Positions 1-20,671 of a stretch of DNA of 24,643 nucleotides are shown piece by piece (positions within the stretch are counted from its first letter, which is position 1; each line of letters opens with the position of its first letter). The translations under genes were made by a program, and so were the position numbers. The notes beneath the pieces are model-generated. The model made no database searches and was not told where the DNA came from. It saw only the letters and a program-made list of their open reading frames with translations. Source of the stretch: a virus (Duplodnaviria > Heunggongvirae > Uroviricota > Caudoviricetes); the IMG/VR virus record IMGVR_UViG_2778261316_000001, positions 1 through 24,643 of that record; one strand, written 5' to 3'.

Positions 1-111
1 TCCACCTGCAAAATAAGTGGGTGCTTAAGTTACAGGATCCTGGATTCGGGACCAGACGGTACTCAGACGACGCTTACACTTCAGGAGGCATAACAAAAGG
101 AGTACAACGAT

Positions 112-867
112 ATGTCAACTCAACCCTTAATGAAGCATGAAGTAGTTCTTCCGGTCATCGTTGACGGCTATCACTGGGCCTGTAATCAGGACCGTATGTG
201 GAACCTGAACGAGCTACATAGGACGCTTGGGCTTCCACCTGCTAAGGAGCCGGGTCAGTGGCGTAGCTCTCTAAAAGACAAGCTCGTTAAAGATGCAAAT
301 TTGCATGTTTTAGCAGGACGCTCCGGTGGCACACTGGCAACTGAGGAAGCGGCTATTGCCTATGCGATGTGGGTCTCTGACGATTTCTACCTAAAGGTCA
401 TCCGTGCTTTCATCGCTTTACGTAACGACAAAGTGTCAGAAGCTAAGGCGCTGGCGCAGGACTCCAAGGAACTTAAGGGTCTCAAGCCTATAGCCCGTAA
501 CTGGCTGGAAAAGCTGGATAACCCGAAGCAGGGCCACACCCTGACAGAGTGTCTTAAGAATCTCGACTTCAGGCTAGGTACAAAGCTGGTATCAGCCAAG
601 GCTCTTAATGCCGTATTGAAGTCAGGGCGTATAGCTAATCCCTTCTATAGTCGCAAGCTGGACGGTCGAGGACAGCCTGTATTTGACATCTCGTCAGGTG
701 GCTGGATGACCAGCTTCAATCCGAAGGGTCTGGAGAACGGCTATTACCGTCTTCAGGATAACCACTACAACGGTCAGGAGGGGCTTAAGGTCCTCACCAA
801 GGGTTACGAGTGGCTTAAGTCCAACAAGGTCGAGCTGGTTCGTCTGTGCGCTAAGGGAGGACTCTAA
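112..867 (+). CDS. KilA-N-like domain protein (phage antirepressor/regulator-like), 251 aa
   Basis: ORF preceded by AGGAGG...AAGGAG; N-terminal ~100 aa resemble KilA-N/APSES DNA-binding domain pattern (e.g. EEAAIAYAMWVSDDFYLKVIRAF). Domain call from memory, not searched. Confidence 0.45.
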   Translation: MSTQPLMKHEVVLPVIVDGYHWACNQDRMWNLNELHRTLGLPPAKEPGQWRSSLKDKLVKDANLHVLAGRSGGTLATEEAAIAYAMWVSDDFYLKVIRAFIALRNDKVSEAKALAQDSKELKGLKPIARNWLEKLDNPKQGHTLTECLKNLDFRLGTKLVSAKALNAVLKSGRIANPFYSRKLDGRGQPVFDISSGGWMTSFNPKGLENGYYRLQDNHYNGQEGLKVLTKGYEWLKSNKVELVRLCAKGGL

Positions 868-868
868 G

Positions 869-1036
869 ATGATCGACCCGCGCACACCTGAGGGTCGCAT
901 GACTCTCCGTTACCGTGGCTACCGGACTGAAGTCATCCTGAAGGAGCTTGGTCTAGACCCGGAAGATGAGACCCGCCAGCACCAATCACGAGATGAGCTA
1001 ATAGCCCAACTGGTCGCTATGAAACTGTCTGCCTAA
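869..1036 (+). CDS. Small hypothetical phage protein, 55 aa (MIDPRTPEGRMTLRYRGYRTEVILKELGLDPEDETRQHQSRDELIAQLVAMKLSA)
   Basis: ATG 1 nt after the stop of the upstream ORF, suggesting translational coupling; not in ORF track because shorter than 60 aa. Confidence 0.3.
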   Translation: MIDPRTPEGRMTLRYRGYRTEVILKELGLDPEDETRQHQSRDELIAQLVAMKLSA

Positions 1037-1132
1037 TTTTAAAACCTTTTGAGATGACCGATGCGGGGAGACCCGTAGGCGCTACTGCGTCTGCGATACC
1101 GATAGTCTCAACTCTCAAGAGGAGTAATTACT

Positions 1133-1642
1133 ATGTCTAGCAAAGCTAGTGCGTTATTCAACAACAATGACTGGAAACTCCATGTCACCGACATCAATCT
1201 CTACGAAAACACTGTGAGTCTGGACGGTCAGTCCTACCCACTGTCCTTCGCTATTAAGACCCTGATTCCGGGCTACCTGTCAGGACTGCCTGCCACCAGC
1301 CGCGAGTCCATGGAATTACTGGAAGCTCTGGCTGAAGCTGGCGTGACCATTGGAAACTTCTTCAGCAATGACCTGATGACCGCCTACCAACGTCGCCAGC
1401 AGAACAAGCGAGCCGAGGCTGAGCGTATCGCTAAAGAGCAGCGCATTCAGGCTGAGCGTATGCGTGAAGAGAACATGACCGATGCAGAGTGGCAGAAAGA
1501 GCTACAGCGCCGCAAACAGGTCAAAGCTGAGCGCCGGACCTATGGTGAGAACCTCCGCAGTGCTACCCATTCCGCTGGTCGCTCCCGTGCCGCTATTGTC
1601 GCTGACATTGAGTCAGGCGGTAACTGGATGGACAGCCTCTAA
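1133..1642 (+). CDS. Hypothetical phage protein with charged coiled-coil segment (scaffold-like), 169 aa
   Basis: RBS AAGAGGAG upstream; central AEAERIAKEQRIQAERMREE...QKELQRRKQVKAERR heptad-like charged region. Function inferred only from composition and position. Confidence 0.4.
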   Translation: MSSKASALFNNNDWKLHVTDINLYENTVSLDGQSYPLSFAIKTLIPGYLSGLPATSRESMELLEALAEAGVTIGNFFSNDLMTAYQRRQQNKRAEAERIAKEQRIQAERMREENMTDAEWQKELQRRKQVKAERRTYGENLRSATHSAGRSRAAIVADIESGGNWMDSL

Positions 1643-1716
1643 GACAGACACACAAGTGGTCCTGACCTGATGTCGGGACCCACAGTATCTAAAACTAATT
1701 TAGGAGATTGATTATT

Positions 1717-2706
1717 ATGACCATGATTAAAGATAGCTATCAGTTCGGCATTGAGCCAGTACGTATCACCGACACCGACAACATTCAGGTAAACGAAGGT
1801 CTTCCGACTAACGCCGACCCTCAGGTCTATGCCTTCCAGTTAGCTAAGCTGGTGAAGACCATGCTCAATTCTGTACTTAAAGACGCTCAGGATAACATTC
1901 CGTTCCCTGTAGAAGTCCTGCCAGCTCGCAACAGCTTACCGACGCCAATCATTGCTCACACTCTGGCTGACCGCTCTGTGGTCGTTCCTGTCCGTGGTGG
2001 TAAACGACCTGAAGTCGTGACCGCTCCGTCTGGTACTGAAATCACCGTTGAGCCGATTGAGCAAGCTATCCTCGTGTCCCACCAGACCAAGCTATGGGAC
2101 GCTAAGTCATCCACCGGATTCACTCAGGGCACACTTCAGCAGGACGCTATGAACATCTGTGAGAATGTGGTCCGTACCATCAACGCTCGCATGGTCGACG
2201 TTCTGGAGTCCTCCAAACTGTTGAAGACCGTAGAGCTTCCTGTCCTGACTGGTAGCCTGACCGCTAAGGCAGACGATATCATGGACGCTCTGTATGACAA
2301 CACCGAGCCATCTTTCGGTTCTGAGGTTTCTGACTATGGCATTATCGCCCATGAGTCACACATCAAGGCTCTCTCTCGTCTGGCTGCTAAGCAGGGCTTC
2401 TCTGGTGAAGACGCTATCGTGGATATGCTGGGTACCGACATCGCGTATTACAACGGTGAGGACAAAGGTGTGTTCATGTTGGCTAAACGCTTCACGGCCC
2501 TGAGCTTCGGCTGCTTCCGTCACGACGGTGAGAATATTACGGTCGTCCTTTCACGTGATGGCGACTCTCAGTCCCACGACTTGGAAATCCTCGGTAAAGT
2601 GTTCGTTGTCGCTGAAGCTGCTACGACCGTCAAGATGGGCACTGGCTCAGCTACTGCCGTCCTGCCTGTAGTCAAACGCCTGAAGTTCACCAAGACCGAA
2701 GCGTAA
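1717..2706 (+). CDS. Hypothetical phage structural protein, possible major capsid protein, about 329 aa
   Basis: TAGGAG 10 nt upstream of ATG at 1717 (track start 1708 is TTG); T/V/A-rich, low K/R composition and size typical of capsid proteins; follows the coiled-coil ORF. Product is a guess. Confidence 0.4.
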   Translation: MTMIKDSYQFGIEPVRITDTDNIQVNEGLPTNADPQVYAFQLAKLVKTMLNSVLKDAQDNIPFPVEVLPARNSLPTPIIAHTLADRSVVVPVRGGKRPEVVTAPSGTEITVEPIEQAILVSHQTKLWDAKSSTGFTQGTLQQDAMNICENVVRTINARMVDVLESSKLLKTVELPVLTGSLTAKADDIMDALYDNTEPSFGSEVSDYGIIAHESHIKALSRLAAKQGFSGEDAIVDMLGTDIAYYNGEDKGVFMLAKRFTALSFGCFRHDGENITVVLSRDGDSQSHDLEILGKVFVVAEAATTVKMGTGSATAVLPVVKRLKFTKTEA

Positions 2707-2711
2707 GACCA

Positions 2712-2951
2712 ATGGGTAAGAGCATTAGTAAAGGCTTCAGGTCCATCGCCAAGGGCCTGACAGGTGGTGCTGGGACTCAAGGTGGGGCTTCGGTCCCGCC
2801 TCCTGTAGCTCCTCCTGTAGCTCCTCCAGATGACGCTCAGCAAGCTGTAGTCGATACCCAAGGTCAGGAGACCGAGGGAGGTAAGACCATGAGCAGAGGT
2901 AAGTCTGGACTGAATATCAGCAGGACTTCAGGTGGTGGGCTATCACTGTGA
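2712..2951 (+). CDS. Small Gly/Pro-rich hypothetical protein, 79 aa (contains PPPVAPPVAPP)
   Basis: ORF starts 6 nt after the upstream stop, same strand as the block. Confidence 0.3.
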   Translation: MGKSISKGFRSIAKGLTGGAGTQGGASVPPPVAPPVAPPDDAQQAVVDTQGQETEGGKTMSRGKSGLNISRTSGGGLSL

Positions 2952-2961
2952 TTAACTAACT

Positions 2962-2987
2962 ATGGTCTGGACCAATGGTCTGGACCT
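2962..2987. repeat. Tandem direct repeat ATGGTCTGGACC x2 (1-nt spacer)
   Basis: Read directly: ctATGGTCTGGACCaATGGTCTGGACCtg; related copies (AAGTCCAGACC, GGTCCTGACC, AATGACACAAGTCTGG, AATGACACAAGGTCTTG) lie in 3280-3375. Confidence 0.5.
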
Positions 2988-3027
2988 GTTGTTAATGTAA
3001 TAATATAACATAACAGATAGGGGCTTT

Positions 3028-3183
3028 ATGTCTATGACTTCCGCAGACCTGAAGTCCCTCCTGACTCTGGTCTATAAACTCGTGTTCCTCTCTGTGGGTC
3101 TCTACATGGTCCTCTCTGGTCGACTCGGTGTGGATGTGTTCGACACTCTGTCTAAGGCTGTGGGTGGACTTCTAGGTCCTTAG
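3028..3183 (+). CDS. Small predicted membrane protein, 51 aa (MSMTSADLKSLLTLVYKLVFLSVGLYMVLSGRLGVDVFDTLSKAVGGLLGP)
   Basis: GGGG upstream of ATG; one hydrophobic helix; last ORF before the junction region. Confidence 0.3.
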   Translation: MSMTSADLKSLLTLVYKLVFLSVGLYMVLSGRLGVDVFDTLSKAVGGLLGP

Positions 3184-3376
3184 GTTTGGACTCACAGTGG
3201 GACCGATGGTTTCTGACAGAAAAATGTGAATGACCATCTAATACATTAAGCCAGCAGACTTCCCCCCATAGGCCCACCTCAAGTCCAGACCGAGGCCACC
3301 GGGGGTCCTGACCAGCCGTCTAGACATCCAGTCTAATGACACAAGTCTGGCACAAAGAATGACACAAGGTCTTGAC

Positions 3377-4834
3377 TCAATGCAGGACCTCAGGCCTACT
3401 AAGGGTCCGCTTCAAGTCCTTGTAGTTCCAGATGAACTTAATGGGCACATCCAGTTTATCTTTGCCGCGGACGCCGTCGCGGATTGCCGTCATTTGCGGA
3501 CCATGATCGATAGCATCTGTCCAGCTGAAGCAGGAGATTGACGTTTTGACCGGATTATCCAGCACCGGCAGGCGTTCTATGGTAATGGTATAGGTCGATT
3601 CACGCGCGCCACTATTTCCGCCGCTGATGCCGACATTGCCCGTCAAAATAGGTAACATAGCAATAGCGCGTGCAGTCAGTTCGCCGTTTGCCTGGCGTTG
3701 TGGCCCCCAGCCCTGGCAGATATAAGCGGGTTTTGCTGTGCCAATTTCACGCGCCAGTTTGATGATACGGTCCTCCGGGATACCGGTAATTTGCGAAGCC
3801 CACTGCGGCGTTTTCGCTGTTTTATCGTCACCTTCACCAAGAATATAGGCTTTATAGTGACCATTTTTGGGTGCATCTGCGGGTAAGGTTTTTTCGTCAT
3901 AGCCGACGCAGTATTTATCGAGAAAAGATTGATCAACGAGATTTTCGTTAATCAATACCCAGGCAATACCCGCAACCAGCGCGGCATCGGTGCCCGGGCG
4001 AATAGGGAGCCATTCGTCTTCACGACCGGCAGCCGTATCGGTATATCGCGGATCGATAACAATCATTTTGGCGTTCGATTTCTCGCGCGCTTTTTCAAGA
4101 AGATAAGTGATGCCACCACCGCTCATGCGGGTTTCTGCCGGGTTGTTACCAAACATCACGACCAGCTTGCTGTTTTCAATATCCGTGGTGCTGTTGCCAT
4201 CATTACTGCCGTAGGTGTAGGGCATGGCACAGGAAATTTGCGCAGTGCTGTAGGAGCCATACTGGTTGAGTGAACCGCCGTAGCAGTTCATCAGGCGTTT
4301 GACCGCCGAGGCTGATGGCGAAGAGCGGGTCATATTGCCGCCAACGATCCCCGAAGAGTACTGAATATATACAGCCTCATTGCCATATTGTTCGACGGTT
4401 TTCTTCAGGCTACTGGCGATAGTATCCAGGGCTTCATCCCAGCTAATCCGTTCGAATTTGCCTTCGCCGCGTTTGCCCACGCGTTTCATTGGGTAATTCA
4501 AGCGATCGGGATGATTAATACGCCGGCGGATGGAGCGACCGCGCAAACAGGCGCGTACCTGATGGTTGCCGTACTCATCGCTGCCGGTATTGTCAGTTTC
4601 CACCCAGGTCACTTCATTATCTTTAACATGTAGACGAAGTGCACAGCGGCTACCACAGTTGACGGAACAGGCACCCCAGACCACTTTTTCGCGGGCCTGT
4701 TGTACCGATGCTGCTGCATTGCGCAGGGTAAACGGCAAAGAAAAACCGCCTGCAGCCAGCGCCAGAGAACCTATCGCGGTAGATTTAACGAGTGTTCTGC
4801 GGCTGATGCCCACCATTCGTTCATTTTTGGACAT
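3377..4834 (-). pseudogene. ynfE: ynfE truncated: N-terminal ~471 codons of DMSO-reductase-family molybdoenzyme catalytic subunit, Tat signal present
   Basis: Begins MSKNERMVGISRRTLVKSTAIGSLALAAG (twin-arginine motif) with CxxCxxxC cluster; homology to YnfE/DmsA ends after ...VPIKFIWNY (about 3422); last 14 codons (KDLKRTLSRPEVLH) are read-through into foreign DNA. Full-length protein is about 800 aa. Confidence 0.8.
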
Positions 4835-10194: not shown

Positions 10195-11475
10195 TTAATT
10201 TTTCATTGCTTCGTTATGGGGCATGGTTGGGGCAAACTCGCTTAACTGTGTATTTAACAAAGCTACCTGTGCATTATTGTTTTCAGACATCCATTTTCCG
10301 TATACCTGAAATACCATTTGCGCATCTGCATGGCCCATCTGGTTTGCTATAAATGCCGGGTTAGCACCAGCTGTCAGCGACCAGCAGGCATAAGTATGTC
10401 TCGACTGATATGATTTTCGATGGCGGAGTCCGGCACGTTTTATCGCTGCGTCCCACATCTGCCTTATTGAGTCAACGGTAAAATGGTCACCATAATTTTT
10501 TACTCTCGCTGACACTTCAGGTTGAAAAACAAAGGTGCATTTTTGTTTTTCTGTTCTGCCATACTCTCTGAGGTGAACATCAATGATATGCTCTTTGCTC
10601 AGTCTCGTTAATGTCATCTGACTCCGGAGAGCGTCGATTGCTGGCTTAATAAGATGAATGACCCGATTGGTTCCCGCCTGTGTTTTTGGTACCGTGAAAC
10701 GGTCTTTTGCTAAATTTCTCCTGATCATCATTGTTCCATTTTTCAGATCTATGTCCTCCCATCCAAGTGCACACAGCTCACCAGGGCGAACGCCAGTATA
10801 AACAGAAACACACCATAAATTTTTGGCTTGCTGATTTCTGCACGCATCGATAAGACGGATGAATTCCTCCCGCGAAAGAGGATCCGGAATGGTTCTTGAT
10901 TCCTTTAATGGCGAGATCCCCTTAAACGGGTTATCTGCCAAGTAACCGTTATCAACACCAAACTGGAACACGGCGTTAAGATTTGTCATGTAATTATTTA
11001 CAGTTACAGCCGATCTCCCTGGTTGTGTAACAATATAGTTACTTTTGGGGATCTGGTATCCAGTCAGTAGCTCTTTACGAACCTCCAGTAATTTTTCTTT
11101 ATTAATCGATGAGGCAAGATTTTTTTCACCGATTATGCTCAGGATATTTTTGATGACGGCACGGTATGTGTTGAGTGATGTTTTTGCGACTTCAGTTTCT
11201 TTCAGTGCCAGAAATTTTTCAGCCAGTTCTTTTATGGTTAAATCTTGTCGGGCCTCACCAAATTTTTCCAGATTGCGTGAGGAGGGAAACTGTTTTGCAT
11301 AGTCGAAAACACCAGTTTTTATTGCGTAACAAACAGAGGCGCGTAGTTCACCTGCAACGCGCCTGTTTTTTGCTGTGTCAGGAACCCCCAGATTTTCCCT
11401 GACTCTTACGCCTTTATAAACAAACCAGATACGTAATTTCCCTCCATGGTTTTCCACGCCTGTCGGATATTTCAT
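10195..11475 (-). CDS. int: Phage tyrosine integrase (lambda/Rac IntR-like), about 426 aa
   Basis: N-terminus MKYPTGVENHGGKLRIWFVYKGVRVRE resembles IntR-type integrases; C-terminal catalytic region with HxxR and terminal Tyr context (SYQSRHTYACW...HADAQMVFQVYGKW); adjacent to the ydfJ junction. Confidence 0.85.
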   Translation of the reverse strand: MKYPTGVENHGGKLRIWFVYKGVRVRENLGVPDTAKNRRVAGELRASVCYAIKTGVFDYAKQFPSSRNLEKFGEARQDLTIKELAEKFLALKETEVAKTSLNTYRAVIKNILSIIGEKNLASSINKEKLLEVRKELLTGYQIPKSNYIVTQPGRSAVTVNNYMTNLNAVFQFGVDNGYLADNPFKGISPLKESRTIPDPLSREEFIRLIDACRNQQAKNLWCVSVYTGVRPGELCALGWEDIDLKNGTMMIRRNLAKDRFTVPKTQAGTNRVIHLIKPAIDALRSQMTLTRLSKEHIIDVHLREYGRTEKQKCTFVFQPEVSARVKNYGDHFTVDSIRQMWDAAIKRAGLRHRKSYQSRHTYACWSLTAGANPAFIANQMGHADAQMVFQVYGKWMSENNNAQVALLNTQLSEFAPTMPHNEAMKN

Positions 11476-11509
11476 TTCAACTTCTCTCATTAGTTAGTGT
11501 GGCTTTTAG

Positions 11510-11761
11510 TCAAGTAAGATGACGTCTTGGTCTCGCTGATGCCTGGCGCTCAATCCAGCGATCAATTTCTTCCAGGTTGTAAAAGCATGGGCTGTTATCC
11601 CATGGCATACCGTCATGAGCGACATGCTTATATTCCCTTCCTTCCATAAACGATTTTTCCCGGGCCTTTTTTAACGTACCTTTTTTTATTCCTTTCAGCG
11701 CAATTAACTGCTCTTCGGATACCCATTTGCCGGGAGAGACAATCATGATTACTTCGCTCAT
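11510..11761 (-). CDS. xis: Putative excisionase (YdaQ/Xis-like), 83 aa
   Basis: Small basic protein immediately upstream of int on the same strand; resembles recalled Rac YdaQ. Confidence 0.6.
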   Translation of the reverse strand: MSEVIMIVSPGKWVSEEQLIALKGIKKGTLKKAREKSFMEGREYKHVAHDGMPWDNSPCFYNLEEIDRWIERQASARPRRHLT

Positions 11762-11833
11762 CGATTTCTTTATCTCTTACATTAGACGAGCGCCGGTTGC
11801 AGAATACCAGTCACAACCGGCGACAGTTGAACA

Positions 11834-14305
11834 TTAAGAATCAGCCTGACTCGGGATCAGTTTTTGCCAGATAACTGAAACGTATTTTGCCTGGTAACGG
11901 GCGTCATCAAGTGCATTATGGCGCTCACCTTCGAATGGAATAGCCGTTCTGGCATCGAAGTCTATGGCTTTCCCCAGCTCAACGATTGTGCGTACATCGC
12001 GATCGTTGTAGTAACGCCACGGGCAGGGGATCCCCTGCCGTTCGTATGAACGGCGCAAAATCGTGTTGTCGAAGTTGGCTCCATTTCCCCAAACCTGAAC
12101 AAAAAATTCACCGGAGTTTTCGTCGATAAATTCCCGCAATTGTAACAGTGCATCATCTAACGGGATTTCATCGGTCATAATGGCAGATTGCGCTTCGCGT
12201 GATTGCTTAAGCCACCATTTAATGGTGTCCCGATCAATGACTCCGCCAGCAGTTTCCAGATCGATAGTCTTACTAAATTCCGGTCCCATATCTCCGGTTT
12301 GCGGATCGAAAAATATTGCACCTATTGAGATGATCGGGGCATCAGGATTTTTTCCCATGGTTTCAAGGTCGATCATTAGATGGTCACACGTCCTGCTGGT
12401 GGATGTGATTTCGTGATGACCGTTCACCTTAATTGAGTGATCTGCCGTCTCGCCAGTTTCATTATCGCTATTGTGATGCTGATTGCCGCCAGTGTTCTCC
12501 TTGTGTGGATGTTCAGCGCCTTCCATTTCCTCCAGATCATCTTCCTGAACTTCAACCTGATACTCTTCATCGAATGTTTCCTGGTATGTTGCGTCGCCCA
12601 TCACCGCGCCACAATCAGGGCAGTTGCCGCCGCCGGTCTGACCGCAGGCGGTGCAGACTTTTTCCACTTCCAGTTGCGCCACTGGTTCAGGCTGTTTCGT
12701 TTCTGGCTCGTTTTGTAACGCATTTGTGCTGTTTTGTTCCGCTTTTTGGTAGTTCCGTTCCGATTCATGCTGGTTCTGGTTCACAGAATCGCGGGTCTGG
12801 ATCCCCTTAACCCATTTCGGATCATTCGGGTCACTAATCCCTTCAACAAATTCACCACGTGATGCAGCAAGCAACTTATCGGCGTCAGGCTGGCTGATAT
12901 TGGCTGCCTGCATAATTTTGTTTACTTCGTCAGCGGTAACTTTTATCGGCTCTGGTTGTTCTGAATCTTCAGCGGTATCTACATTTTGCGGTAAGCCCGT
13001 GTATGTGCCATTTTTTCGGGCAAAATATTCTTCTTTTGTGATTTCAGTGGCGCCAGCAGCCAGTGCCTTATCCAGACCAGAAAGTTTGTTTGCGCGACCG
13101 TATTTTTCTCCGTCCTTATCTGCGAAGAGGAAATAGAACGGCCCCTCACGCTCTACAGATGGTTCAGCTTCCGGCGCGGTTTCATTTTTTGGGATATCAG
13201 ATACCTCAGTTTCCACTGCATCAGTTTGTGTTTCTGATGACTGGAGAACATCAACAGTGCCCAGGTCTGTTTCTTCATTCTCAAACACGCCCTTTGTCGT
13301 CAGGTATTCGCAGATATATTTGTTCAGTGCTATGGGATCTTTGTGAATGTCGATCGGACGCTCACGGACAAGGCCAAAAATAGTCTGGCGGTCGTAGCGA
13401 AGGGCATCAGGCTGTTTGCGCATTGATGCCGAGATACGCTTCCAGTCTTCGCGGTCGTTGTCGATAACTTCTTTTTTTGCCCAGCGATGGATGCTGCCGT
13501 CAATGTTTCCGGCATCCACATCACCAGGCCAGAGAGCGTAGGCCAGTTCGTCATCCAGTGTTTTCCATGTCTGCTTGTATTCGCGATGAATGGCAGCAAT
13601 GACCGGGCTGATTTTTCCTGTTGAATTTTCAGTGTACTGTTGATTGGTTCTGGCGCGGGCGAGATCAACAACAGACGTGTATTTTCCGGTTTCCTTGCGT
13701 TCACCTTCGCGACGTTTTTTCCAGATGCGCATCTCTGCCTGAATTTCGGGCCATTTAGCACCAGGAATACATTTATGCTTAACCCACCCAATGGCGTGCA
13801 ACTTAAGCTCCGGATACATGGCGTTAACTTCTGGCATTTTCATCAACGCTTCAACGATATGTCCGTCGAATGTTGCCATGTCTTCCTGCAACAATTCCTG
13901 TGCGCTAATAACCATATCAACGGTGATGTTTTCACATGTGTCGAACTTAACCATGACAGCGTTCTGTACTTCAGGGGCCAGCTTGTCAAAAGTGACGTTC
14001 ATCGGATCGGATTCAGTCTCAACCGGGACAAAAGAAGCAGACTCCTCATCCCAGCGGTTTTCCTGCATATATTCAGCATCCCATGAATCGAGGGCAGGGC
14101 GGGGTATGCCAGGTTTATCCTCGCAGACAATAAATTTATAAGCGCAGTCCTGAGCAGCCGGATAATGTTCCAGGAACTGCCAGTGAAATTTTGCTCGAGC
14201 ACGGCGTTCGTCGCCAGCTTCAATGGCTGTGGCTACAGCCACAGCGCCTTCTTCCCTTGTTGCCAGTTCGTCAGGAATAGCGGCGCAAATAAAGACTTTA
14301 CTCAT
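11834..14305 (-). CDS. RecE-like exonuclease VIII family protein with C-terminal DnaQ-like (DEDDh) 3'-5' exonuclease domain and internal Cys4 zinc ribbon, 823 aa
   Basis: Middle segment DADKLLAASRGEFVEGISDPNDPKWVKGIQTRD matches a recalled RecE segment; C-terminus has MIDLETMG, WGNGANFDN and HNALDDARY (Exo I/II/III motifs); CTACGQTGGGNCPDCG zinc ribbon. Confidence 0.7.
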   Translation of the reverse strand: MSKVFICAAIPDELATREEGAVAVATAIEAGDERRARAKFHWQFLEHYPAAQDCAYKFIVCEDKPGIPRPALDSWDAEYMQENRWDEESASFVPVETESDPMNVTFDKLAPEVQNAVMVKFDTCENITVDMVISAQELLQEDMATFDGHIVEALMKMPEVNAMYPELKLHAIGWVKHKCIPGAKWPEIQAEMRIWKKRREGERKETGKYTSVVDLARARTNQQYTENSTGKISPVIAAIHREYKQTWKTLDDELAYALWPGDVDAGNIDGSIHRWAKKEVIDNDREDWKRISASMRKQPDALRYDRQTIFGLVRERPIDIHKDPIALNKYICEYLTTKGVFENEETDLGTVDVLQSSETQTDAVETEVSDIPKNETAPEAEPSVEREGPFYFLFADKDGEKYGRANKLSGLDKALAAGATEITKEEYFARKNGTYTGLPQNVDTAEDSEQPEPIKVTADEVNKIMQAANISQPDADKLLAASRGEFVEGISDPNDPKWVKGIQTRDSVNQNQHESERNYQKAEQNSTNALQNEPETKQPEPVAQLEVEKVCTACGQTGGGNCPDCGAVMGDATYQETFDEEYQVEVQEDDLEEMEGAEHPHKENTGGNQHHNSDNETGETADHSIKVNGHHEITSTSRTCDHLMIDLETMGKNPDAPIISIGAIFFDPQTGDMGPEFSKTIDLETAGGVIDRDTIKWWLKQSREAQSAIMTDEIPLDDALLQLREFIDENSGEFFVQVWGNGANFDNTILRRSYERQGIPCPWRYYNDRDVRTIVELGKAIDFDARTAIPFEGERHNALDDARYQAKYVSVIWQKLIPSQADS

Positions 14306-14398
14306 TTTGTTTTAACCTCATGACAGATTTAAGGATGAACAAATCCCTGCCATTGCTGGCATATAAGAATGAAACCGGATATTTATTACGGAACTGTT

Positions 14399-14590
14399 TT
14401 AAAGACCTGCCGGGATTTCGATATTATCCTGGTGAATAACTTTATCGACCGGGTAACAGTTACCGGGAATTTTCTGTTCGGTTGCTGCAGTCATACACTC
14501 CTGCATTGTCCTGTGCACACTGACTGCAATATCAACTGGCTCTCCGGAAACAAGAAAAACTGTCAGAACAAGCACAAATGCTGAATTCAT
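14399..14590 (-). CDS. ydfD: YdfD-like small prophage protein, 63 aa
   Basis: MNSAFVLVLTVFLVSGEPVDIAVSV... one hydrophobic helix; start overlaps the dicB stop (ATGA); position after dicB as in Qin. Confidence 0.7.
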   Translation of the reverse strand: MNSAFVLVLTVFLVSGEPVDIAVSVHRTMQECMTAATEQKIPGNCYPVDKVIHQDNIEIPAGL

Positions 14591-14775
14591 TGTGCACATC
14601 CTTTTGGCATCAGACGTAAACGAGCCAGCATTGAAACAATGCATATTTTATTTAATAGCTCCCGTTCTTGTTTTCTCTTGTTAATGGCATCTTCAGTAAA
14701 TACTGGGTTACTGATAGTGACACCAATTTCAAAACAACCTTCAGACGTATTAACGTTTGGTAATAACGTTTTCAT
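14587..14775 (-). CDS. dicB: Cell-division inhibitor DicB, 62 aa
   Basis: MKTLLPNVNTSEGCFEIGVTISNPVFTEDAINKRKQERELLNKICIVSMLARLRLMPKGCAQ matches recalled DicB; lies just downstream of dicF on the same strand. Confidence 0.85.
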   Translation of the reverse strand: MKTLLPNVNTSEGCFEIGVTISNPVFTEDAINKRKQERELLNKICIVSMLARLRLMPKGCAQ

Positions 14776-14949
14776 TATCGCGTCCTCAACAATGAATTTT
14801 GTGATGCAGTGCCTGGTGCCTCCAGGTGACGTTAACCAGTTAACAATTAACGCCGGATACAGAGAATCCACCCATAACACTGTTTTTGGTTTTAACTGTT
14901 CCGCGTGCGCTCAGCCGCATTCACCACATCACAAAATTCACTTTAAAAA

Positions 14950-15002
14950 GGGCGGCAGAGCAGTCACGGAGTAAAACTGATACCGCCAAACGTCACCAGA
15001 AA
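14950..15002 (-). ncRNA. dicF: DicF small RNA (53 nt) with intrinsic terminator
   Basis: Reverse complement reads TTTCTGGTGACGTTTGGCGGTATCAGTTTTACTCCGTGACTGCTCTGCCGCCC followed by TTTTT, identical to the recalled K-12 DicF sequence. Confidence 0.9.
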
Positions 15003-15342
15003 ATTGATAACAGAGGGCGTTGCAGCGGGGTTGTCACTTAAGCGTATGGTCAACCTGACAACCCGGTGTCCTCAACGGGGAAGGAATAACCCCGCCATAC
15101 TTACCGCCGCGCCATTTCGCGGGTTGCCACAACCGGAAGCGCACGGTCGACGAAAATTTAACGACAGGCTATCTATGAACCAGCTACCTCGCCGTGCGCT
15201 TTCGCGTTATGGTCTGACTTTTCAGGGAAATATCCTTTCAGTAAACTGTCAGTGCCGGATGCTCACCCGTGTCCGGCGCACGCACTCCACCTCACCCGTG
15301 GAGAACTCCTTAATTACTAACCTTAGCTTTGTTGATTAGCTA

Positions 15343-15561
15343 CTAACGCGGGTATGTAATCATTCTGGCAATGCTTAATGCCGCTGCTTTTTCCAGATTG
15401 GTGATATCCTGCTCCAGAGCGGACAGATTTTCAGCCTGCTTAGCCCTGGTTTCATTGGCCCATTTCAAATCCTGCGCTGCATTAATTTTCTGGCGCATCC
15501 ACTCATAAAGTTCATCATCGGTATAGTCTGGCGCGATGATGACGGGTTCTCGTTTCTGCAT
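15343..15561 (-). CDS. ydfC: YdfC-like prophage protein, 72 aa
   Basis: Size and position (between ydfB and dicF) match the Qin dicB operon; sequence MQKREPVIIAPDYTDDELYEWMRQ... resembles recalled YdfC. Confidence 0.7.
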   Translation of the reverse strand: MQKREPVIIAPDYTDDELYEWMRQKINAAQDLKWANETRAKQAENLSALEQDITNLEKAAALSIARMITYPR

Positions 15562-15590
15562 ACTGATTCCTCGCGGTGCTGTTTCGCTTA

Positions 15591-15719
15591 TCAGCCGTTA
15601 GATTTTGCCGAACTGGAAAGCGCCTGTTTAAATTCGTTGAAGCTGAGAGCTTCTTCGCCGTCGGCAAGACCTTCCAAGTATTCTTCGTAAGCCTTTTCCA
15701 TGATTGTGTCGAAATCCAT
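15591..15719 (-). CDS. ydfB: YdfB-like prophage protein, 42 aa (MDFDTIMEKAYEEYLEGLADGEEALSFNEFKQALSSSAKSNG)
   Basis: Found by manual translation (below track cutoff); start is 2 nt after the ydfA stop; size matches K-12 YdfB. Confidence 0.6.
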   Translation of the reverse strand: MDFDTIMEKAYEEYLEGLADGEEALSFNEFKQALSSSAKSNG

Positions 15720-15720
15720 A

Positions 15721-15876
15721 TCACTCACCTGGGTTTCTTTCCAGCCAGCGACGGGCACCATTTTCGGTTTTAAACGTTTTGCTTTTGGTATACGTCATCG
15801 CGGTGAACGTACCGTCCTGGTTGGGGAACACGCCACATACCAGAGATTCGCTGTTGCCAAGATCGATAGTATCCAT
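15721..15876 (-). CDS. ydfA: YdfA-like prophage protein (DUF1391), 51 aa
   Basis: MDTIDLGNSESLVCGVFPNQDGTFTAMTYTKSKTFKTENGARRWLERNPGE; first gene downstream of the dicB-operon promoter. Confidence 0.7.
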   Translation of the reverse strand: MDTIDLGNSESLVCGVFPNQDGTFTAMTYTKSKTFKTENGARRWLERNPGE

Positions 15877-15990
15877 GCTGACCTCATTTCCCCTTAACGC
15901 CGGGGTAGCGGAACTGTTTGCTGAGAACACCGTGCGGTGTCTTGATGGAAAATAATTTAGAATAACCTAACATGAGAGGCAAGTGTTTTT

Positions 15991-16008
15991 TGTTAGATTG
16001 ATCTAACA
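15991..16008. promoter_or_regulatory. Palindrome TGTTAGA-TTGA-TCTAACA in the dicB-operon promoter region (candidate DicA operator)
   Basis: Perfect 7-bp inverted repeat between the dicA 3' end and the ydfA start; the same half-sites recur at 16502-16519. Confidence 0.5.
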
Positions 16009-16044
16009 AAAAGGGTGGGCGCAACTAATCACTTGAAAAGAATG

Positions 16045-16452
16045 TTATTTTATTGATTTATTTTTACGCGCTTTAAGCATTTCTTCGAAGAGTTTGTTGA
16101 AGTTTTCTACTCTTGCGCGCATTTCAGACAGCAAGGCTTCCTGCTCGGAAGATGGAAGAGCATCGAATAATTCGATCAATTCTTTGTGGTTGGGAGTTAG
16201 CTCTGTTTCCACATGAAGTTCTTGTGCAGGCACTGGTGCCTTGTCTTCGTCACCAAACATTAGCCATGTAGGTGAGCACTTCAGAGCATCCGCTAAAGCA
16301 AACAATCGTTTTCCGACTGGCTGGGTTTCGTCTCTTTCCCATTGTGAAATTGTGACGTGAGCAACTCCAGCGAGGCGCGCGGCTTCTCGTTGTGTTAAGC
16401 GTAATTCTTTTCGTCGCGCCAGAACTCGCTGGCCCAGGGTTCTTGTATCCAT
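16045..16452 (-). CDS. dicA: DicA, HTH-XRE repressor (cI-like), 135 aa
   Basis: N-terminal HTH (LRLTQREAARLAGVAHVTISQWERDE); C-terminal part (FALADALKCSPTWLMFGDEDK...EMRARVENFNKLFEEMLKARK) matches recalled DicA; divergent from dicC. Confidence 0.85.
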   Translation of the reverse strand: MDTRTLGQRVLARRKELRLTQREAARLAGVAHVTISQWERDETQPVGKRLFALADALKCSPTWLMFGDEDKAPVPAQELHVETELTPNHKELIELFDALPSSEQEALLSEMRARVENFNKLFEEMLKARKNKSIK

Positions 16453-16501
16453 AGTTAGGTAATTCTAATTTTTCTTGACTTAGGTATCCCGCGCACAATA
16501 A

Positions 16502-16519
16502 TGTTAGAAAAGTCTAACA
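16502..16519. promoter_or_regulatory. Palindrome TGTTAGA-AAAG-TCTAACA in the dicA-dicC intergenic region (candidate operator)
   Basis: Perfect inverted repeat just upstream of the dicC RBS (GAGGGGGG) and about 50 bp from the dicA start; a TTGACT -35-like hexamer lies upstream. Confidence 0.5.
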
Positions 16520-16533
16520 AGAGGGGGGCTTTG

Positions 16534-16761
16534 ATGCTTAAAGTTGACGCAATTACTTTTTTTGGCAGCAAAACAAAGCTTGCCAATGCCGCAGGAGTGA
16601 GGCTGGCAAGTGTTGCTGCTTGGGGGATACTGGTTCCTGAAGGTCGCGCGATGCGTCTACAGGAGGCATCTGGCGGGGAGCTTCAGTATGATCCCAAAGT
16701 TTATGATGAATATCGTAAGACGAAGCGGGCGGGGCGGTTGAACAATGAAAATCACTCCTGA
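16534..16761 (+). CDS. dicC: DicC, Cro-like regulator, 75 aa
   Basis: MLKVDAITFFGSKTKLANAAGVRLASVAAW...; start at internal Met after the RBS (the track start at 16501 would include the operator). Confidence 0.8.
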   Translation: MLKVDAITFFGSKTKLANAAGVRLASVAAWGILVPEGRAMRLQEASGGELQYDPKVYDEYRKTKRAGRLNNENHS

Positions 16762-17266
16762 ACAGGCTCGTGAGGCTCTGGATGCCTGGATATGTCGACC
16801 AGGAATGACACAGGAGCAGGCGACGATATTAATCACTGAAGCATTCTGGGCTTTGAAAGAGCGCCCGAACATCGATGTTCAGCGTGTCACAGATGAAGGT
16901 GGCGCGGTTGATCAGCGAGCGCTTGGTGTTAATCGAGTGAAGATATTCGAACGCTGGAAGGCTATCGACACCAGGGATAAGCGTGAAAAGTTCACGGCGC
17001 TAGTGCCTGCGATTATGGAGGCTATCCGGATTAGTGATTTCAGGTTGTATCGTGAAATTACTGACGGAAAAAGCATCACGTGCATGATCGCCGGGTTAAA
17101 CAAAGAATATGGCGATGTGGTGGAGTCCGGACTGCTTTTTGCTGATCCTGCCGTAGTGGATCGTGAAACTGACGAACTTATAGAAAAAGCAATTGCTTTC
17201 AAGCTTGCGTATCGACAGCAATACCAACAAAAAGCTGGATGGAATTATGAGCCTTCTTTTTGCTGA
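16745..17266 (+). CDS. Hypothetical prophage protein, 173 aa, in the cII/YdaT position
   Basis: ORF overlapping the dicC end and the replication gene start; no motif recognised. Confidence 0.5.
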   Translation: MKITPEQAREALDAWICRPGMTQEQATILITEAFWALKERPNIDVQRVTDEGGAVDQRALGVNRVKIFERWKAIDTRDKREKFTALVPAIMEAIRISDFRLYREITDGKSITCMIAGLNKEYGDVVESGLLFADPAVVDRETDELIEKAIAFKLAYRQQYQQKAGWNYEPSFC

Positions 17267-18190
17267 ACGCCCACTGGTTATAAACACGCAGCTGGCAATG
17301 AAAATTGGCTTAAACGAAGCCATTGTTTTGCAACAACTGCACTACTGGTTGAGAGATACCAACTCCGGCATGGAATGTGATGGTGTTCGCTGGATTTATA
17401 ACACAACGGAACAATGGCTGGAACAGTTCCCATTCTGGTCAGAGTCAACGTTAAAGCGCGCGTTTGCAAGTCTGAAAACGCTGGGGCTTTTGCGTTGTGA
17501 AAAGCTCAATAAATCAAAGCGCGATATGACCAATTTCTACTTTTAGATGGTGGCAAATTGAGCGAATCCATCGGTTCAAAATGCGCCGCTCCATCAGGTC
17601 AAAATGACACGATGGAAGAGGTCAAAATGAAACGCTCCATTGGTTCAAAACGACCCAATGTCATCGGGTCAAAATGGCCTGATGATCTTACAGAGAATAC
17701 AACAGAGATTACTACAGAGAATAAAAACACTTTTCGTCCGGAAGCTTCGCAACCGGACCCGCAGACGACTGAACAGGATTCTTTAACCCGGAACTCCGAC
17801 GCGGTTGTGTTTAGTGCGAAAAAACGCCAGTGGGGTAGCAGGGAGGATTTGGCGTGTGCGCAGTGGATCTGGGGGCGGATCGTGGGTCTCTACGAACAGG
17901 CAGCCAGTGATGATGGCGAGATCATGCGACCAAAAGAGCCTAACTGGACTGCCTGGGCCAATGACGTGCGCACAATGCGGATGCTGGATGGCAGAAGCCA
18001 CAGACAAATTTGCGAAATGTTTGGTCGGGTTCAGCGAGATCCATTCTGGGTAAAAAACATCATGAGCCCGTCAAAGCTCCGCGAAAAATGGGACGAACTG
18101 GTCATCCGCCTGGGACGTTCACCTGTACAGCGTTGTGTTAATCATATTTCTGAACCGGATACAGAAATTCCGCCTGGTTTCAGAGGATAA
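17247..18190 (+). pseudogene. Phage replication initiator (O-like) split into two frames at a T-run, with origin iterons inside
   Basis: N-terminal ~100 aa (MSLLFAERPLVINTQLAMKIGLNEAIVLQQLHYWL...) in frame 0 ends at 17546; continuation in another frame from about 17513/17558 to 18190; frames meet at ctacTTTTagatgg. Confidence 0.55.
17562..17680. repeat. Five iterons (consensus TCCATYGGTTCAAAATG) at 23-24 bp spacing, followed by an A+T-rich stretch: candidate prophage replication origin
   Basis: CAAAATG/CAAAACG cores at 17577, 17600, 17623, 17646, 17670; downstream acagagaatacaacagagattactacagagaataaaaac. Confidence 0.65.
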
Positions 18191-18230
18191 GTGTTGATTT
18201 CAGGTCATGAGGTAATTTTAAGGGGGACTT

Positions 18231-18653
18231 GTGGCAAAAGTTTTTACACAAGAAGAGCGGGAAAAAATTAAATGGCAGGTGGTGGAACTCGTGCGCCAGA
18301 GCGGCCGTGAGACGTTACGGCAACTGGAAGCTAAAACAGGTGCGACTAGATATCTGATGAGCGTTCTTGCCAGAGAGCTGGTAGCCAGTGGCGATGTATA
18401 CAACTCCGGCTACGGGTTATTCCCCTCTGAACAGGCGCGTAAGGACTGGCAAAACGCCCGCAAAAAACTCTCGAGGGCAAAGGTGAAGAAACCTGCTGTG
18501 GTTGATCCGGACCTTATCTGGTCATCACCTGACGGAGAAATACGTCGCTACGACAGTCGCCTAAACATAATCTGTCGCGAGTGCCGGAAGAGCGAAGTTA
18601 TGCAGCGCATACTGGCTTTCTATCAGGGTAATTTTCAGGACGTGGCGCAGTGA
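18231..18653 (+). CDS. Hypothetical prophage protein, 140 aa (GTG start)
   Basis: ORF after the replication gene, overlapping the methyltransferase start (GTGA); basic, with a CxxC pair (CRECRK). Confidence 0.4.
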   Translation: MAKVFTQEEREKIKWQVVELVRQSGRETLRQLEAKTGATRYLMSVLARELVASGDVYNSGYGLFPSEQARKDWQNARKKLSRAKVKKPAVVDPDLIWSSPDGEIRRYDSRLNIICRECRKSEVMQRILAFYQGNFQDVAQ

Positions 18654-19139
18654 GTGCACCGGCAACCATTCTTGATATGTGCTGTGGCAGCCGCATGTTC
18701 TGGTTCGATAAGTCTGACAAACGGGCGATATTCAGCGATATCAGAAAAGAAGGATACACATTACGCAATGGGAGACGCTTGATTATCAGCCCTGACATTA
18801 TCGCAGATTTTCGTGCATTATCATTTGCAGACGCATCTTTTTCGATGGTTGTATTAGACCCTCCGCATCTTGAGCGTGTTGGTGATAACGCCTGGATGGG
18901 AAAGAAATATGGACGGCTGAATAAAGATGCCTGGCGTGATGATTTGCGACAGAGATTTAAAGAAGCTTTTCGGGTGTTGAGGCCGCACGGCGTTCTGATT
19001 TTTTAATGGAATGAAACGCAAATACCGGTAAGCCAGATTCTGGCACTGACAGATAGAAAGCCTGTTATCTGTCAACGAACAGGGAAAAAACGATAAAACC
19101 CACTGGATTATTTTTATGAAAGAGGCATCCAGTGAGTAG
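18650..19139 (+). pseudogene. Phage DNA methyltransferase (DPPH motif) disrupted by an in-frame TAA and a frameshift in an A-run
   Basis: ILDMCCGSR (motif I-like) and VVLDPPH (motif IV); in-frame TAA at 19004-19006 inside ...GVLIF*WNETQIPVSQ...; reading shifts frame in AAAAAA at 19085-19090 to continue ...NDKTHWIIFMKEASSE. Confidence 0.6.
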
Positions 19140-19616
19140 ATTCGTAAGGTTACAGATACGTATATCTGAATAATTAAATTCAGTTCTGTAAATAAAACTT
19201 AATCCTTAACCGGATGGATTTCTGCACCCTCAGAACATCAGGAGGCCGCCCGAAAGGGCGGTAGTGAAATGCGAAAGTTCAAAATTATTATTGAAACGGA
19301 AATAGCTGGTGGAGATTTTGAGGATGTATTCGAAGTGGACGATGACGCAACACCTGATGAAATTCATGACGGAGCATAAGAAATTTTCTTTAACTACTGC
19401 AATTACTCATACCACGAAATAAAAGACGATGAGGAAGAACAAAGTGGCTGATTTTTGTTCAGCTAAATATAACATCAGTTTTGAAGAGCGGGATGAACTA
19501 TTAATGGACTATGGTGAATTACGCGGTGGAAGTGCTGCTGATGTCGAATCCTAGCGTGATGACTATGAAGCGGGAAAAACTCCGGTCGAAGCATATTGTG
19601 ATGAGTGGGGCGATGA

Positions 19617-19871
19617 ATGAGCGAGATTAATTATCAGGAAGGGCATGAAACGGCGGGGCAAGCAAAACCAGTGGCATGGCGATATCGCTACGTGAAAAAA
19701 GCGTTACGGACTTTCAGGGGAAGTAGTGGTCTGGTGACTGGAAATATGTACCGAAAAAAGAGGATTGTAACGACAGGCCGAACTATCAAATTCAGGCCTT
19801 ATTCACTGCCTCACCAGTCCCGGTTACATCAGAAGAACTGGTTAAAGCTGTGCACTTTTATGAACAACTAA
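19617..19871 (+). CDS. Hypothetical protein, 84 aa, possibly frameshifted
   Basis: Track ORF; an alternative frame from about 19700 gives a more protein-like continuation (WKYVPKKEDCNDRPNYQIQALFTASPVPVTSEELVKAVHFYEQLKREN) without a start codon. Confidence 0.3.
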   Translation: MSEINYQEGHETAGQAKPVAWRYRYVKKALRTFRGSSGLVTGNMYRKKRIVTTGRTIKFRPYSLPHQSRLHQKNWLKLCTFMNN

Positions 19872-20157
19872 AACGCGAAAATCCACCAACATCCGGCAAC
19901 TAGATTAATGGATTAACTATGTCGGTTAAACGACCAGCCAACTGAAAAAGCGGAAACCTGATTACAGGTTGCCAGATAAGGCAATGAGCTACCTGGCGCG
20001 GAACGGGCTGATAAGTATGGGGAATGTTTTACGATGAACCTTTAGACTAAAGAGTTTGTAACGCTATGTAAGTGATTTTTTCTGGTTTAGATATTTATAT
20101 GTCCGGCCAAATTGAGGTGTGTTTAAATGTAATTGCACATTGATTGTAGGAGGAATA

Positions 20158-20337: not shown

Positions 20338-20643
20338 ATACAGCGAACTCCATTGGTTTAGTTGGATATTTACTGTGCTGGACAAAAACGGTTTGCGGGG
20401 AAATCTTAGTTAAGTAGAATGACTGCGGGTGCTTGAGGCTATCTGCCTCGGGCATGGACACCAACGGCAGATAGAGAAAAGCCCCAGTTAACATTACGCG
20501 TCCTGCAAGACGCTTAACATTAATCTGAGGCCAATTTCATGCTAGACACATGTAGGTTAGCCTCTTACGTGCCGAAAGGCACGGAGAAGCAGGCTATTGT
20601 TAACACCAAGCTGTAATGTCCCCTTTGAACCATTCTAAAATGT

Positions 20644-20670: not shown

Positions 20671-20671
20671 C

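Follow-up and report, generated by a model that had tools for sequence, protein, structure and literature searches.

The 24643 nt sequence of the IMG/VR virus record IMGVR_UViG_2778261316_000001, the whole of which is called the window below, begins inside an integrative island of approximately 6.6 kb that is inserted in the Escherichia coli gene ynfE. Close to the ynfE junction it carries a cluster of short repeated words, which an initial annotation made from the sequence had read as one family of integrase or excisionase arm-type sites. Our analysis indicates that 2955–3434 is probably the right-hand cis-acting end of this island, combining a terminator hairpin, a copy of the packaging junction of T7-type phages, integrase arm sites and the attachment (att) core. 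The quoted words are at least three unrelated things and not one family of integrase sites, and the sequence makes the island a candidate satellite of T7-group phages. Few phages have been studied as thoroughly as T7, which is considered to be strictly virulent and, to our knowledge, has no natural satellites.

The attachment core in ynfE

A three-way alignment of the empty ynfE locus of K-12 with the two island junctions, a comparison that the initial annotation had proposed, defined a 13 bp core, GTAGTTCCAGATG, which is present at both island junctions and as a single copy in K-12 ynfE. The true attR core is the copy at 3422–3434, so that the real junction lies approximately 45 bp to the right of ~3375, where it had been placed initially. 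The open reading frame (ORF) 3377–4834 is the N-terminal fragment of ynfE, which runs on for 45 nt into island DNA (3377–3421) before reaching a stop codon, and because the truncated frame extends into the island its end at 3377 does not mark the junction. At the far (left) end of the island lies an ORF for a tyrosine recombinase of 526 amino acids (aa), which matches Pfam PF00589 (Phage_integrase; E=1.3e-13) and PHROG 1 (E=5e-42). The duplicated core and the integrase at the opposite end bear out the earlier suggestion of an att region, here the attR side of an element that has integrated. The window matches E. coli chromosomes, and its first 6 kb were found as here in 108 of 5426 complete E. 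coli genomes (~2%), in which ynfE is split by an island carrying the 526-aa recombinase. ynfE has already been listed among the genes interrupted by integrative elements (PMC7192596).

All of the quoted words were located in the window by script. ATGGTCTGGACC starts at 2962 and 2975 (a 13 nt period), AAGTCCAGACC at 3281, GGTCCTGACC at 1658 and 3304, and AATGACACAAG at 3335 and 3358, the range of 3344–3375 given initially for the last of these being approximately 10 nt off. Neither GGTCTGGACC nor GGTCCTGACC was found anywhere else in the window, and TGACACAA has one extra copy, on the opposite strand at 22842. An Rfam scan of 1–3600 at E≤1 gave no matches.

Homology with the T7-type packaging junction

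When 2700–3421 was compared with 50697 phage records by sensitive blastn, matches were obtained only at the ends of T7-like genomes, one of them partly inside an annotated ‘short direct terminal repeat’. With the two island arms joined as they would be after excision, 93 phage records matched, those ranked best being nearly all Studiervirinae genomes of ~38–40 kb, and these matches were collinear with the concatemer junction, passing through the pre-repeat and repeat start, the repeat interior and the repeat end. In addition, an nhmmer profile built from four phage junctions only recognized 3195–3288 of the window (E=3e-11, 40 bits), and found one site per island in both subfamilies and none elsewhere in 176 kb. 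Global alignment of the rebuilt attP with the junction of phage Pisces misplaced the repeat start owing to the difference in length, and local alignments and the profile search were used. With ^ for the repeat boundary, the T7 junction reads ...AAAAATCTGAGTGACTA^TCTCACAG...CCCCCATAGGGGG and its island counterpart ...AAAAATGTGAATGACCA^TCTAATAC...CCCCCCATAGGCCC, the island continuing with CAGACCGAGGCCACCGGGGGTCCTGACC as against CAGACCAAAGGCCACCACCCCAGTGACC in Pisces. By analogy with the annotated phage repeat starts TCTCACAG and TCTCATAG, the right-end cut is predicted to fall just before 3237. The stretch 3237–3357, corresponding to approximately the first 120 nt of the repeat, contains AAGTCCAGACC (3281) and GGTCCTGACC (3304), and because they lie inside the junction-homologous stretch both are, on their sequence, ordinary members of the short GAC/GTC-rich units of T7-type terminal repeats, a homology that explains these two words without recourse to arm-type sites.

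The island of E. coli SH21PTE31 (L031, 7020–7060) keeps the type A arm with TGACACAA and the core, and has a different pre-repeat sequence, ACGATGAGTTTTGGACCAAAAGTTAGAGA, which matches Pisces at 28/29. This indicates that the packaging-like module is exchanged independently of the recombination module, and the sequences suggest that such exchange tracks the helper phages. The same island also carries the small ORF of type B islands.

The counterpart of the repeat end lies in the left arm, inside the integrase gene (int), where the sequence GGGTCTCCCT^ATCTGTATCAGC compares with GAGTCTCT^ATCTGTATCAGC at the annotated repeat end of Pisces (position 190). ATCTGTATCAGC is an exact match across the Pisces repeat boundary at 190/191, and CTATCTGTA occurs on the + strand of Pisces only at 189. 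The motif GTCTCCCT^ATCTGTAT is found once per island, in the present one at int codons 18–23, outside the window. A 16-mer, GTCTCCCTATCTGTAT, likewise occurs once per island and is absent from 31 kb of E. coli DNA. Type A and type C islands have it at int codon 18 (frame 2), type B islands at codon 167 (frame 0); since it occupies two int reading frames and two positions, it is conserved as DNA and not as protein. By sequence, it resembles the class II pause/termination signal of T7 RNA polymerase, ATCTGTT, which is located at the T7 concatemer junction (10.1101/2021.01.11.426313; 10.64898/2026.02.12.705533).

Promoters were sought with a weight matrix derived from 11 promoters of the Kayfunavirus phage Pisces, with a threshold of 8 bits. 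The best island site scored 34.4 bits (L003 4279), within the range of Pisces's own promoters, and a gene-free stretch contains two further matches (23.8 and 20.7 bits) together with a T3-like site; one phage-type promoter immediately precedes the variable cargo gene. Promoters of this kind are present in every island subfamily, each of them co-oriented with the genes, and no match of at least 8 bits was found in 21 kb of E. coli DNA. The strong Kayfunavirus-type promoters are at least 2.4 kb upstream of the junction and co-oriented with it. At L003 5224–5350, within the 900 bp that lack genes, a G-run and then AT-rich sequence come after a phage-type promoter, an arrangement reminiscent of the T7 primary origin (promoter plus AT-rich region).

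Hairpins, arm repeats and word bias

GGTCTGGACC is nearly identical with its own reverse complement, and for this reason its two tandem copies can pair with each other in RNA, forming 8 Watson–Crick and 2 G–U pairs. The RNA of 2964–2986 folds with −20.9 kcal/mol (z=−3.0), and a terminator scan flagged the same segment, with 10 pairs (6 of them G–C), a loop of 3 and the tail TGTTGTTAAT; overall, the sigma-70 and terminator scans gave a background density of hits. The hairpin begins 13 nt past the stop codon of the gp6.7-like ORF, and in the islands it is always 3′ of the capsid gene or of the capsid and gp6.7-like genes. As MAFFT could not align the variable loops, conservation was judged by folding and pairing of each variant. 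Nine island variants (Table 1) fold into stems of 8–10 bp with −12 to −17 kcal/mol, their loops differing (AAU, UGAG, UUCG or 13–14 nt), and most are trailed by T-runs. The UUCG tetraloop appears twice among them, and in L016 a double change of T·G to A–T keeps the pairing, which together point to selection on an RNA stem and not on two spaced protein sites. From its sequence, this hairpin is most likely the transcription terminator of the capsid/gp6.7-like operon. The other copy of GGTCCTGACC, at 1658 (1659 in the initial annotation, which counted it among the related copies), is half of a 9 bp hairpin before the capsid gene. An AT-rich imperfect inverted repeat (TGTTGTTAATG...TAACATAACA) occupies 2987–3016, after the hairpin and ahead of the small ORF; in T7 and Pisces, the corresponding position before gene 19.5 is likewise taken by AT-rich hairpins.

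The third component is the TGACACAA array. Units of the form (C)TGACACAA(A/G) occur as 2–3 tandem copies spaced by one helical turn between −85 and −62 relative to the core. The left arm has two more in the same orientation, which fall within int (+158 and +169). In other type A islands all three units are perfect and 11–12 bp apart, and all island copies of TGACACAA lie in the two arms. Type C islands keep the motif, whereas type B islands, with their divergent integrase, have TGTAACC pairs in the same geometry, at −73, −61 and +74, +86. Because of this presence on both arms, the tandem spacing and the change of motif with the divergent integrase, TGACACAA fits arm-type sites and is, on sequence, the best candidate for the arm sites of the integrase. 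The non-core motifs repeated on both arms are TGACACAA (−85, −62; +158, +169), TTGACTCAA (−50; +38) and CTTCAAGTC (inverted, −12; +25). CTTCAAGTCC, beside the core, is a candidate site for the recombinase or an accessory factor, and, as the TGACACAA array, TTGACTCAATGC and CTTCAAGTCC each have counterparts in the left arm, these three would be the likely binding sites of attachment-site proteins. The left-arm TGACACAA copies of type A islands sit where T7-like phages have post-repeat short repeats.

The earlier proposal that all GGTCTGGACC-type and GACACAAG-type words are integrase or excisionase arm-type sites in attR is consistent with the adjacent core, with the tyrosine integrase at the other end and with the behaviour of TGACACAA, to which alone it may apply: TGACACAA recurs at the element's other end, as such sites should, but GGTCTGGACC is absent from the left arm. 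Moreover, GGTCTGGACC lies 435–460 bp from the core and beyond a gene, the spacing of its copies varies (12, 13, 14 or ~22 nt) while the pairing between them is kept, the words at 3281 and 3304 are explained by phage terminal-repeat homology, and no excisionase gene was seen in the island. As an account of the whole cluster we therefore regard it as unlikely. The excess of the words is real, but what was taken for a single family comprises a hairpin, a stretch with homology to phages and, separate from these, the TGACACAA array.

A second alternative is that the words are by-products of a T7-like oligonucleotide and codon bias (GGTC, GACC, GTCC and GGAC) that cluster at the island end by chance. 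The 8-mer GTCTGGAC occurs 9 times in the 6.6 kb island, compared with 1.3 (order-3 Markov model) or 2.5 (order-5) copies expected, and none of 300 order-5 simulations reached 9 copies; there are 0 copies in 21 kb of flanking E. coli DNA. The words are thus more frequent than composition would predict; in Pisces, GTCTGGAC is present at 0.41 per kb. As GTCTGGAC is also frequent in that phage, and 6 of its 9 island copies are intragenic, part of the word excess is an element-wide bias common to T7-like phages and not a property of the supposed family. GTCTGGAC, GTCCTGAC and CTGAAGTC each occur 7–9 times per 6.6 kb, mostly within genes, and are enriched in Pisces too, and the order-5 model is enough to account for CTGAAGTC (P=0.41) and almost enough for TGACACAAG (P=0.09). 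Bias as the entire explanation is nevertheless very unlikely, given that the hairpin structure is conserved across subfamilies differing in sequence, that the junction homology is significant and positionally collinear, that GTCTGGAC exceeds even the order-5 expectation, and that every island copy of TGACACAA falls within the two arms.

Table 1 Features of the right-hand island end, island genes, hairpin variants and island types (window coordinates unless an island locus, L, is named)
Feature	Position	Strand	Sequence	Basis and remarks
Pre-repeat (‘pac’-side) homologue	3195–3236	+	CTGACAGAAAAATGTGAATGACCA	blastn, nhmmer; kept in all island subfamilies
Terminal-repeat-start homologue	3237–~3357	+	TCTAATAC...CCCCCCATAGGCCC...CAGACC..GGCCACC...	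Alignments with T7, Citrof5, JA10 and Pisces
Stem–loop, probable terminator	2964–2986	+	GGUCUGGACC-AAU-GGUCUGGACC (tandem ATGGTCTGGACC ×2)	RNA fold, terminator scan; T-rich tail 2987–2996
Three-unit array, candidate integrase arm-type sites	3337–3368	+	TGACACAAG (3337), TGGCACAAAG (3348), TGACACAAG (3360)	Period 11–12
Arm repeat, possible integrase, excisionase (Xis)/integration host factor (IHF) or promoter element	3372–3383	+	TTGACTCAATGC	Direct copy in left arm at +38; −50/+38 in three type A islands
Arm repeat	3410–3419	+	CTTCAAGTCC	Inverted in left arm as GGACTTGAAG; −12 and +25/26 in all type A islands
attR core copy	3422–3434	+	GTAGTTCCAGATG	Two core copies per island; ynfE continues rightward, gene on minus strand
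16-mer within int	L001 16961–16988; L016 3599; L022 134		GTCTCCCTATCTGTAT
Phage-RNA-polymerase promoters (predicted)	L003 4279, 5201, 5516, 5539			Left of window start; also in L016 and L022
Hairpin between DUF6971 and capsid genes	1658–1680	+	GGTCCTGAC-CTGAT-GTCGGGACC	9 pairs including one G–T
Gene for 329-aa major capsid protein, HK97 fold by model	1717–2706	+		AlphaFold2, Foldseek
79-aa ORF resembling T7 gp6.7 (virion protein)	2712–2951	+		PHROG 1320, E=1.2e-11, full length
51-aa hydrophobic ORF	3028–3183	+		ORF list; positional counterpart of T7 gene 19.5
Hairpin variant, L028 and L030			GGTCTGGACC-AAT-GGTCTGGACC	Tail TTTGTTTTGT
Hairpin variant, L013 and L033			GGTCTGGACC-AAT-GGTCTGGGCC	Tail TTTGTTTTGT
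Hairpin variant, L029			GGTCTGGACT-AAT-GGTCTGGGCC
Hairpin variant, L014			GGTCTGGACC-TGAG-GGTCTGGACC
Hairpin variant, L031			GGTCTGGAC-TTCG-GTCTGGACC
Hairpin variant, L016			GGTCAGGATC-TTCG-GGTCTTGGCC
Hairpin variant, L012 and L019			GGTCAGAC-N14-GTCTGGCC	Tail TTTATTTTGT
Hairpin variant, L015			GGTCAGAC-N13-GTCTGGCC	Tail TTTATTTTGT
Hairpin variant, L022			GGTCTGGAC-N13-GGTCTGGGCC	Tail TTATTTATTTGT
Island type A	Site ynfE
Island type C				Integrase 80% identical; core similar but different
Island type B	Site 3′ end of tRNA-like gene			Integrase 30% identical

A candidate satellite and its relation to known systems

Approximately 30 type A islands free of insertion sequences (IS), all from E. 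coli genomes, measure 6277–6888 bp despite differing cargo genes. Their length is ~1/6 of a T7-like genome of 38–41 kb; many further copies carry IS3, IS66 or IS21 insertions. Relatives were found in Shigella, Citrobacter, Leclercia and Enterobacter, and the type B target reads, by eye from the sequence, as tRNA-Gly(CCC). From left to right, the gene order is int, variable cargo (an HNH endonuclease, DUF4145 or hypothetical proteins), a gene-free stretch of ~900 bp, KilA-N (replaced by Rha in some variants), DUF6971, the 329-aa and 79-aa proteins and the small hydrophobic ORF. With its 7–9 genes, the island is integrative, has an incomplete virion and replication set and carries cis signals matched to a helper, which fits a phage satellite.

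The 329-aa protein has no annotated relatives, gave no match by tblastn against phages and nothing in a sequence-profile search of the PDB or by BLASTP against the Pisces capsid protein. Its structure was predicted by AlphaFold2 from a 34-sequence alignment with a predicted local distance difference test (pLDDT) score of 80, a first run on a shallow alignment having given an unusable model (pLDDT 42). All of the top 50 Foldseek matches of this model in the PDB and BFVD were phage major capsid proteins or encapsulins, with a probability of 1.00, and for this reason the protein is, by its model, an HK97-fold capsid protein. An exhaustive profile search retrieved distant homologues, some with C-terminal Ig domains; the family is known only from these islands and from distant metagenomic homologues. 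For the adjacent 79-aa ORF, the PHROG profile match is the sole support: the match to Pfam VirionAssem_T7 (E=2e-3) is under the curated cut-off, and BLASTP against Pisces gp6.7 was not significant. This ORF is partly deleted in L003. The 51-aa ORF may correspond to gene 19.5 by analogy of layout, a positional likeness only, as it lies between the last promoter/terminator and the right-end repeat as in T7 and Pisces. The DUF6971 protein (1133–1642) has a highly charged, helix-prone C-terminal half, and its gene directly precedes the capsid gene, in the place expected of a scaffolding protein; the label ‘peptidase M16 family’ that it bears in some records looks doubtful.

The T7-like promoters, the gp6.7-like gene, the HK97 capsid gene and the junction-like sequence, taken together, might also be expected of a decayed remnant of an integrated (temperate) T7-like phage in which the repeat-like and promoter-like sequences are relics with no present role, and many copies do have IS insertions or small deletions. 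This is highly improbable, however, for the same compact architecture of 6.3–6.9 kb recurs across E. coli, Shigella, Citrobacter, Leclercia and Enterobacter, combined with either of two types of integrase and inserted at three or more target sites, the pac module is swapped between variants, the capsid protein is unrelated in sequence to that of Pisces, and no polymerase, portal or tail remnants were found in the island. Finally, the idea that the tandem GGTCTGGACC is an operator through which a dimeric regulator of the island (KilA-N or Rha, for instance) would act on the small ORF downstream, to which the near-palindromic form of each copy (GGTC..GACC) upstream of an ORF lends itself, is barely credible, since type B islands have GGTCAGAC-N14-GTCTGGCC, in which pairing is retained but two palindromic half-site pairs are not, a UUCG tetraloop forms the loop in two cases, the stem is followed by a T-run, and islands with Rha in place of KilA-N (L032) keep the same hairpin.

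In the mechanism that we propose for a right-hand end combining terminator, junction copy, arm sites and core, integration splits the junction mimic and circularization would rejoin the right arm to the left arm. A Kayfunavirus-like T7-type phage would infect the cell, its RNA polymerase would fire the phage-type promoters of the island, and the hairpin would end transcription of the late capsid/gp6.7-like operon, as T-phi does after the T7 capsid gene. The island would then excise, joining 3237–3434 to the first 126 nt of the left arm in a continuous segment of ~324 bp bounded by the pac-like sequence and by the pause-like motif in int, and the helper terminase would cut and package island DNA. 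Packaging as a monomer in a small capsid of the island's own protein and packaging as a concatemer of ~6 units in a helper capsid are equally possible.

Several observations weigh against this reading. The attP junction was absent from viral and metagenome contigs in exact-pattern searches, the pac-like pattern in viral contigs belonged only to island copies in isolate-derived records, and each island-sized contig (6.4–7.8 kb) that resembled a free form turned out to be an integrated copy or a piece of chromosome. The length of the rebuilt repeat would be ~324 bp (type A) or ~855 bp (type B), compared with 160–190 bp in T7 and Pisces, and no replication gene was recognized in the island. L020 has a single GGTCTGGACC copy and has lost the hairpin, which is thus not indispensable. 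The int motif is ATCTGTA and not ATCTGTT, and with T7 polymerase any base change reportedly abolishes class II termination (10.1101/2021.01.11.426313); Pisces too has ATCTGTA. Within the window, including the interval between hairpin and junction, no phage promoter reached 8 bits, and a phiOR-like sequence, CTATCACTGT at 2940, was rejected as a promoter because it scored below 8 bits. Lastly, the TGACACAA array aligns with the TTGACCCAAGG/TTGGCCCAAAG units of the Pisces terminal repeat, so its assignment to the integrase is not exclusive and, judging from the sequence, the units may serve the helper, or both helper and integrase.

On balance, the chances that the island is truly mobilized by T7-like phages seem to us about even. 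The evidence is likewise evenly poised for the wider proposal that the family is a new kind of satellite, which would parasitize virulent T7-group phages of Enterobacterales, respond to the helper RNA polymerase through Kayfunavirus- and T3-type promoters, copy both T7 terminator types, build or modify capsids with its own HK97-fold protein, and split the packaging junction across att so that only excised copies are packaged, its size (1/6 of the helper genome) being set by concatemer packaging or by a small capsid. In the searchable literature, the coverage of which is incomplete, we found no satellite of T7-like phages, no account of this island beyond the listing of ynfE as a target, and no experimental data on its helper-dependent induction, packaging or transfer. 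If true, the proposal would add a new helper class to satellite biology and a natural counterpart to engineered T7 phagemids, offer a natural experiment on which of the pre-repeat region, repeat start and class II pause site T7-type terminases and polymerases depend on, and mean that the outcome of T7-like therapeutic phages on island-bearing strains may be affected. More generally, three signals can lie superimposed in the short repeats of an island end: RNA structure, packaging mimic and recombinase sites.

Two observations concern the remainder of the window. Positions 1–77 have no match in the otherwise 100%-identical NZ_CM194533 and match ECONIH5-type islands. The window derives from another variant of the island, which may be a recombinant. 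Beyond ynfD–ynfA and rspAB, ~10195–24643 contains a second integrase (10195–11490, minus strand) and a region that, as judged by the annotation of the matching genome, is a defective prophage resembling Qin, with exonuclease, dicB/dicC and ydf genes.

Among known systems, the closest is the concatemer junction of T7-like Studiervirinae, nearest in Kayfunavirus (Pisces/K1F) and, for the pre-repeat part, in T7 and Berlinvirus. The two share the pre-repeat, the repeat start TCTNANA...CCCCCATAGGCC...CAGACC..GGCCACC, short GAC/GTC-rich units and the motif CCCT^ATCTGT(A/T) at the repeat end, and both are preceded by a small ORF and hairpins. Unlike the phage junction, the junction-like island copy resides in a 6.6 kb chromosomal island, is split by the att core so that it becomes continuous only after excision, overlaps the int start with its right part and is longer (~324 bp or more). 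PMC13236587, citing Chung and Hinkle (1990), describes plasmids with a T7 origin, pac site and terminal repeat that are replicated, packaged as concatemers and transduced by T7. The island shares with such phagemids a small circular DNA with a T7-type promoter/origin-like region, pac site and terminal repeat; it differs in being natural and chromosomally integrated, with its own integrase, capsid and gp6.7-like genes, and in that its packaging is only predicted.

The attachment region resembles a lambda-type attP in that a tyrosine integrase is encoded next to it, the identical core is short and each arm has tandem direct repeats ~60–170 bp from the core, but the putative arm repeats overlap the phage-repeat homologue and int coding sequence, and no excisionase was recognized. 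T7 reportedly has two natural terminators, T-phi and the concatemer-junction signal (10.64898/2026.02.12.705533). Like the class I terminator T-phi, for which Pisces provides an example, the predicted terminator has a stable hairpin and a U-rich tail right after the capsid-gene operon, although there is no sequence similarity and its tail is interrupted by G (UGUUGUU).

As in phage-inducible chromosomal islands (PICIs), including those of Staphylococcus aureus (SaPIs), an integrase-bearing island carries a packaging signal matched to its helper, and as in capsid-forming PICIs (cfPICIs) it has its own HK97-fold capsid protein. In contrast with PICIs and cfPICIs, it is half the size, its presumed helper is a virulent T7-like phage and its control is through phage-RNA-polymerase promoters. 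Of the cfPICI head module only the capsid protein was recognized, Pfam and PHROG giving no matches for portal, protease/scaffold, connectors or small terminase, nor were AlpA or primase–replicase genes recognized with these databases. PICMIs are minimalist satellites of virulent Vibrio phages, described in Vibrionaceae without capsid-remodelling genes (PMC10803314). They resemble the island in their size of ~6 kb, virulent helper and possible concatemer packaging, whereas the island has a capsid gene, mimics a T7-type repeat and has Enterobacterales hosts; set beside the PICMI core of integrase, Fis/AlpA and primase with no capsid, it has a capsid gene and no primase or AlpA match. The island thus falls outside the defining gene sets of cfPICIs and PICMIs, and still within the phage satellites.

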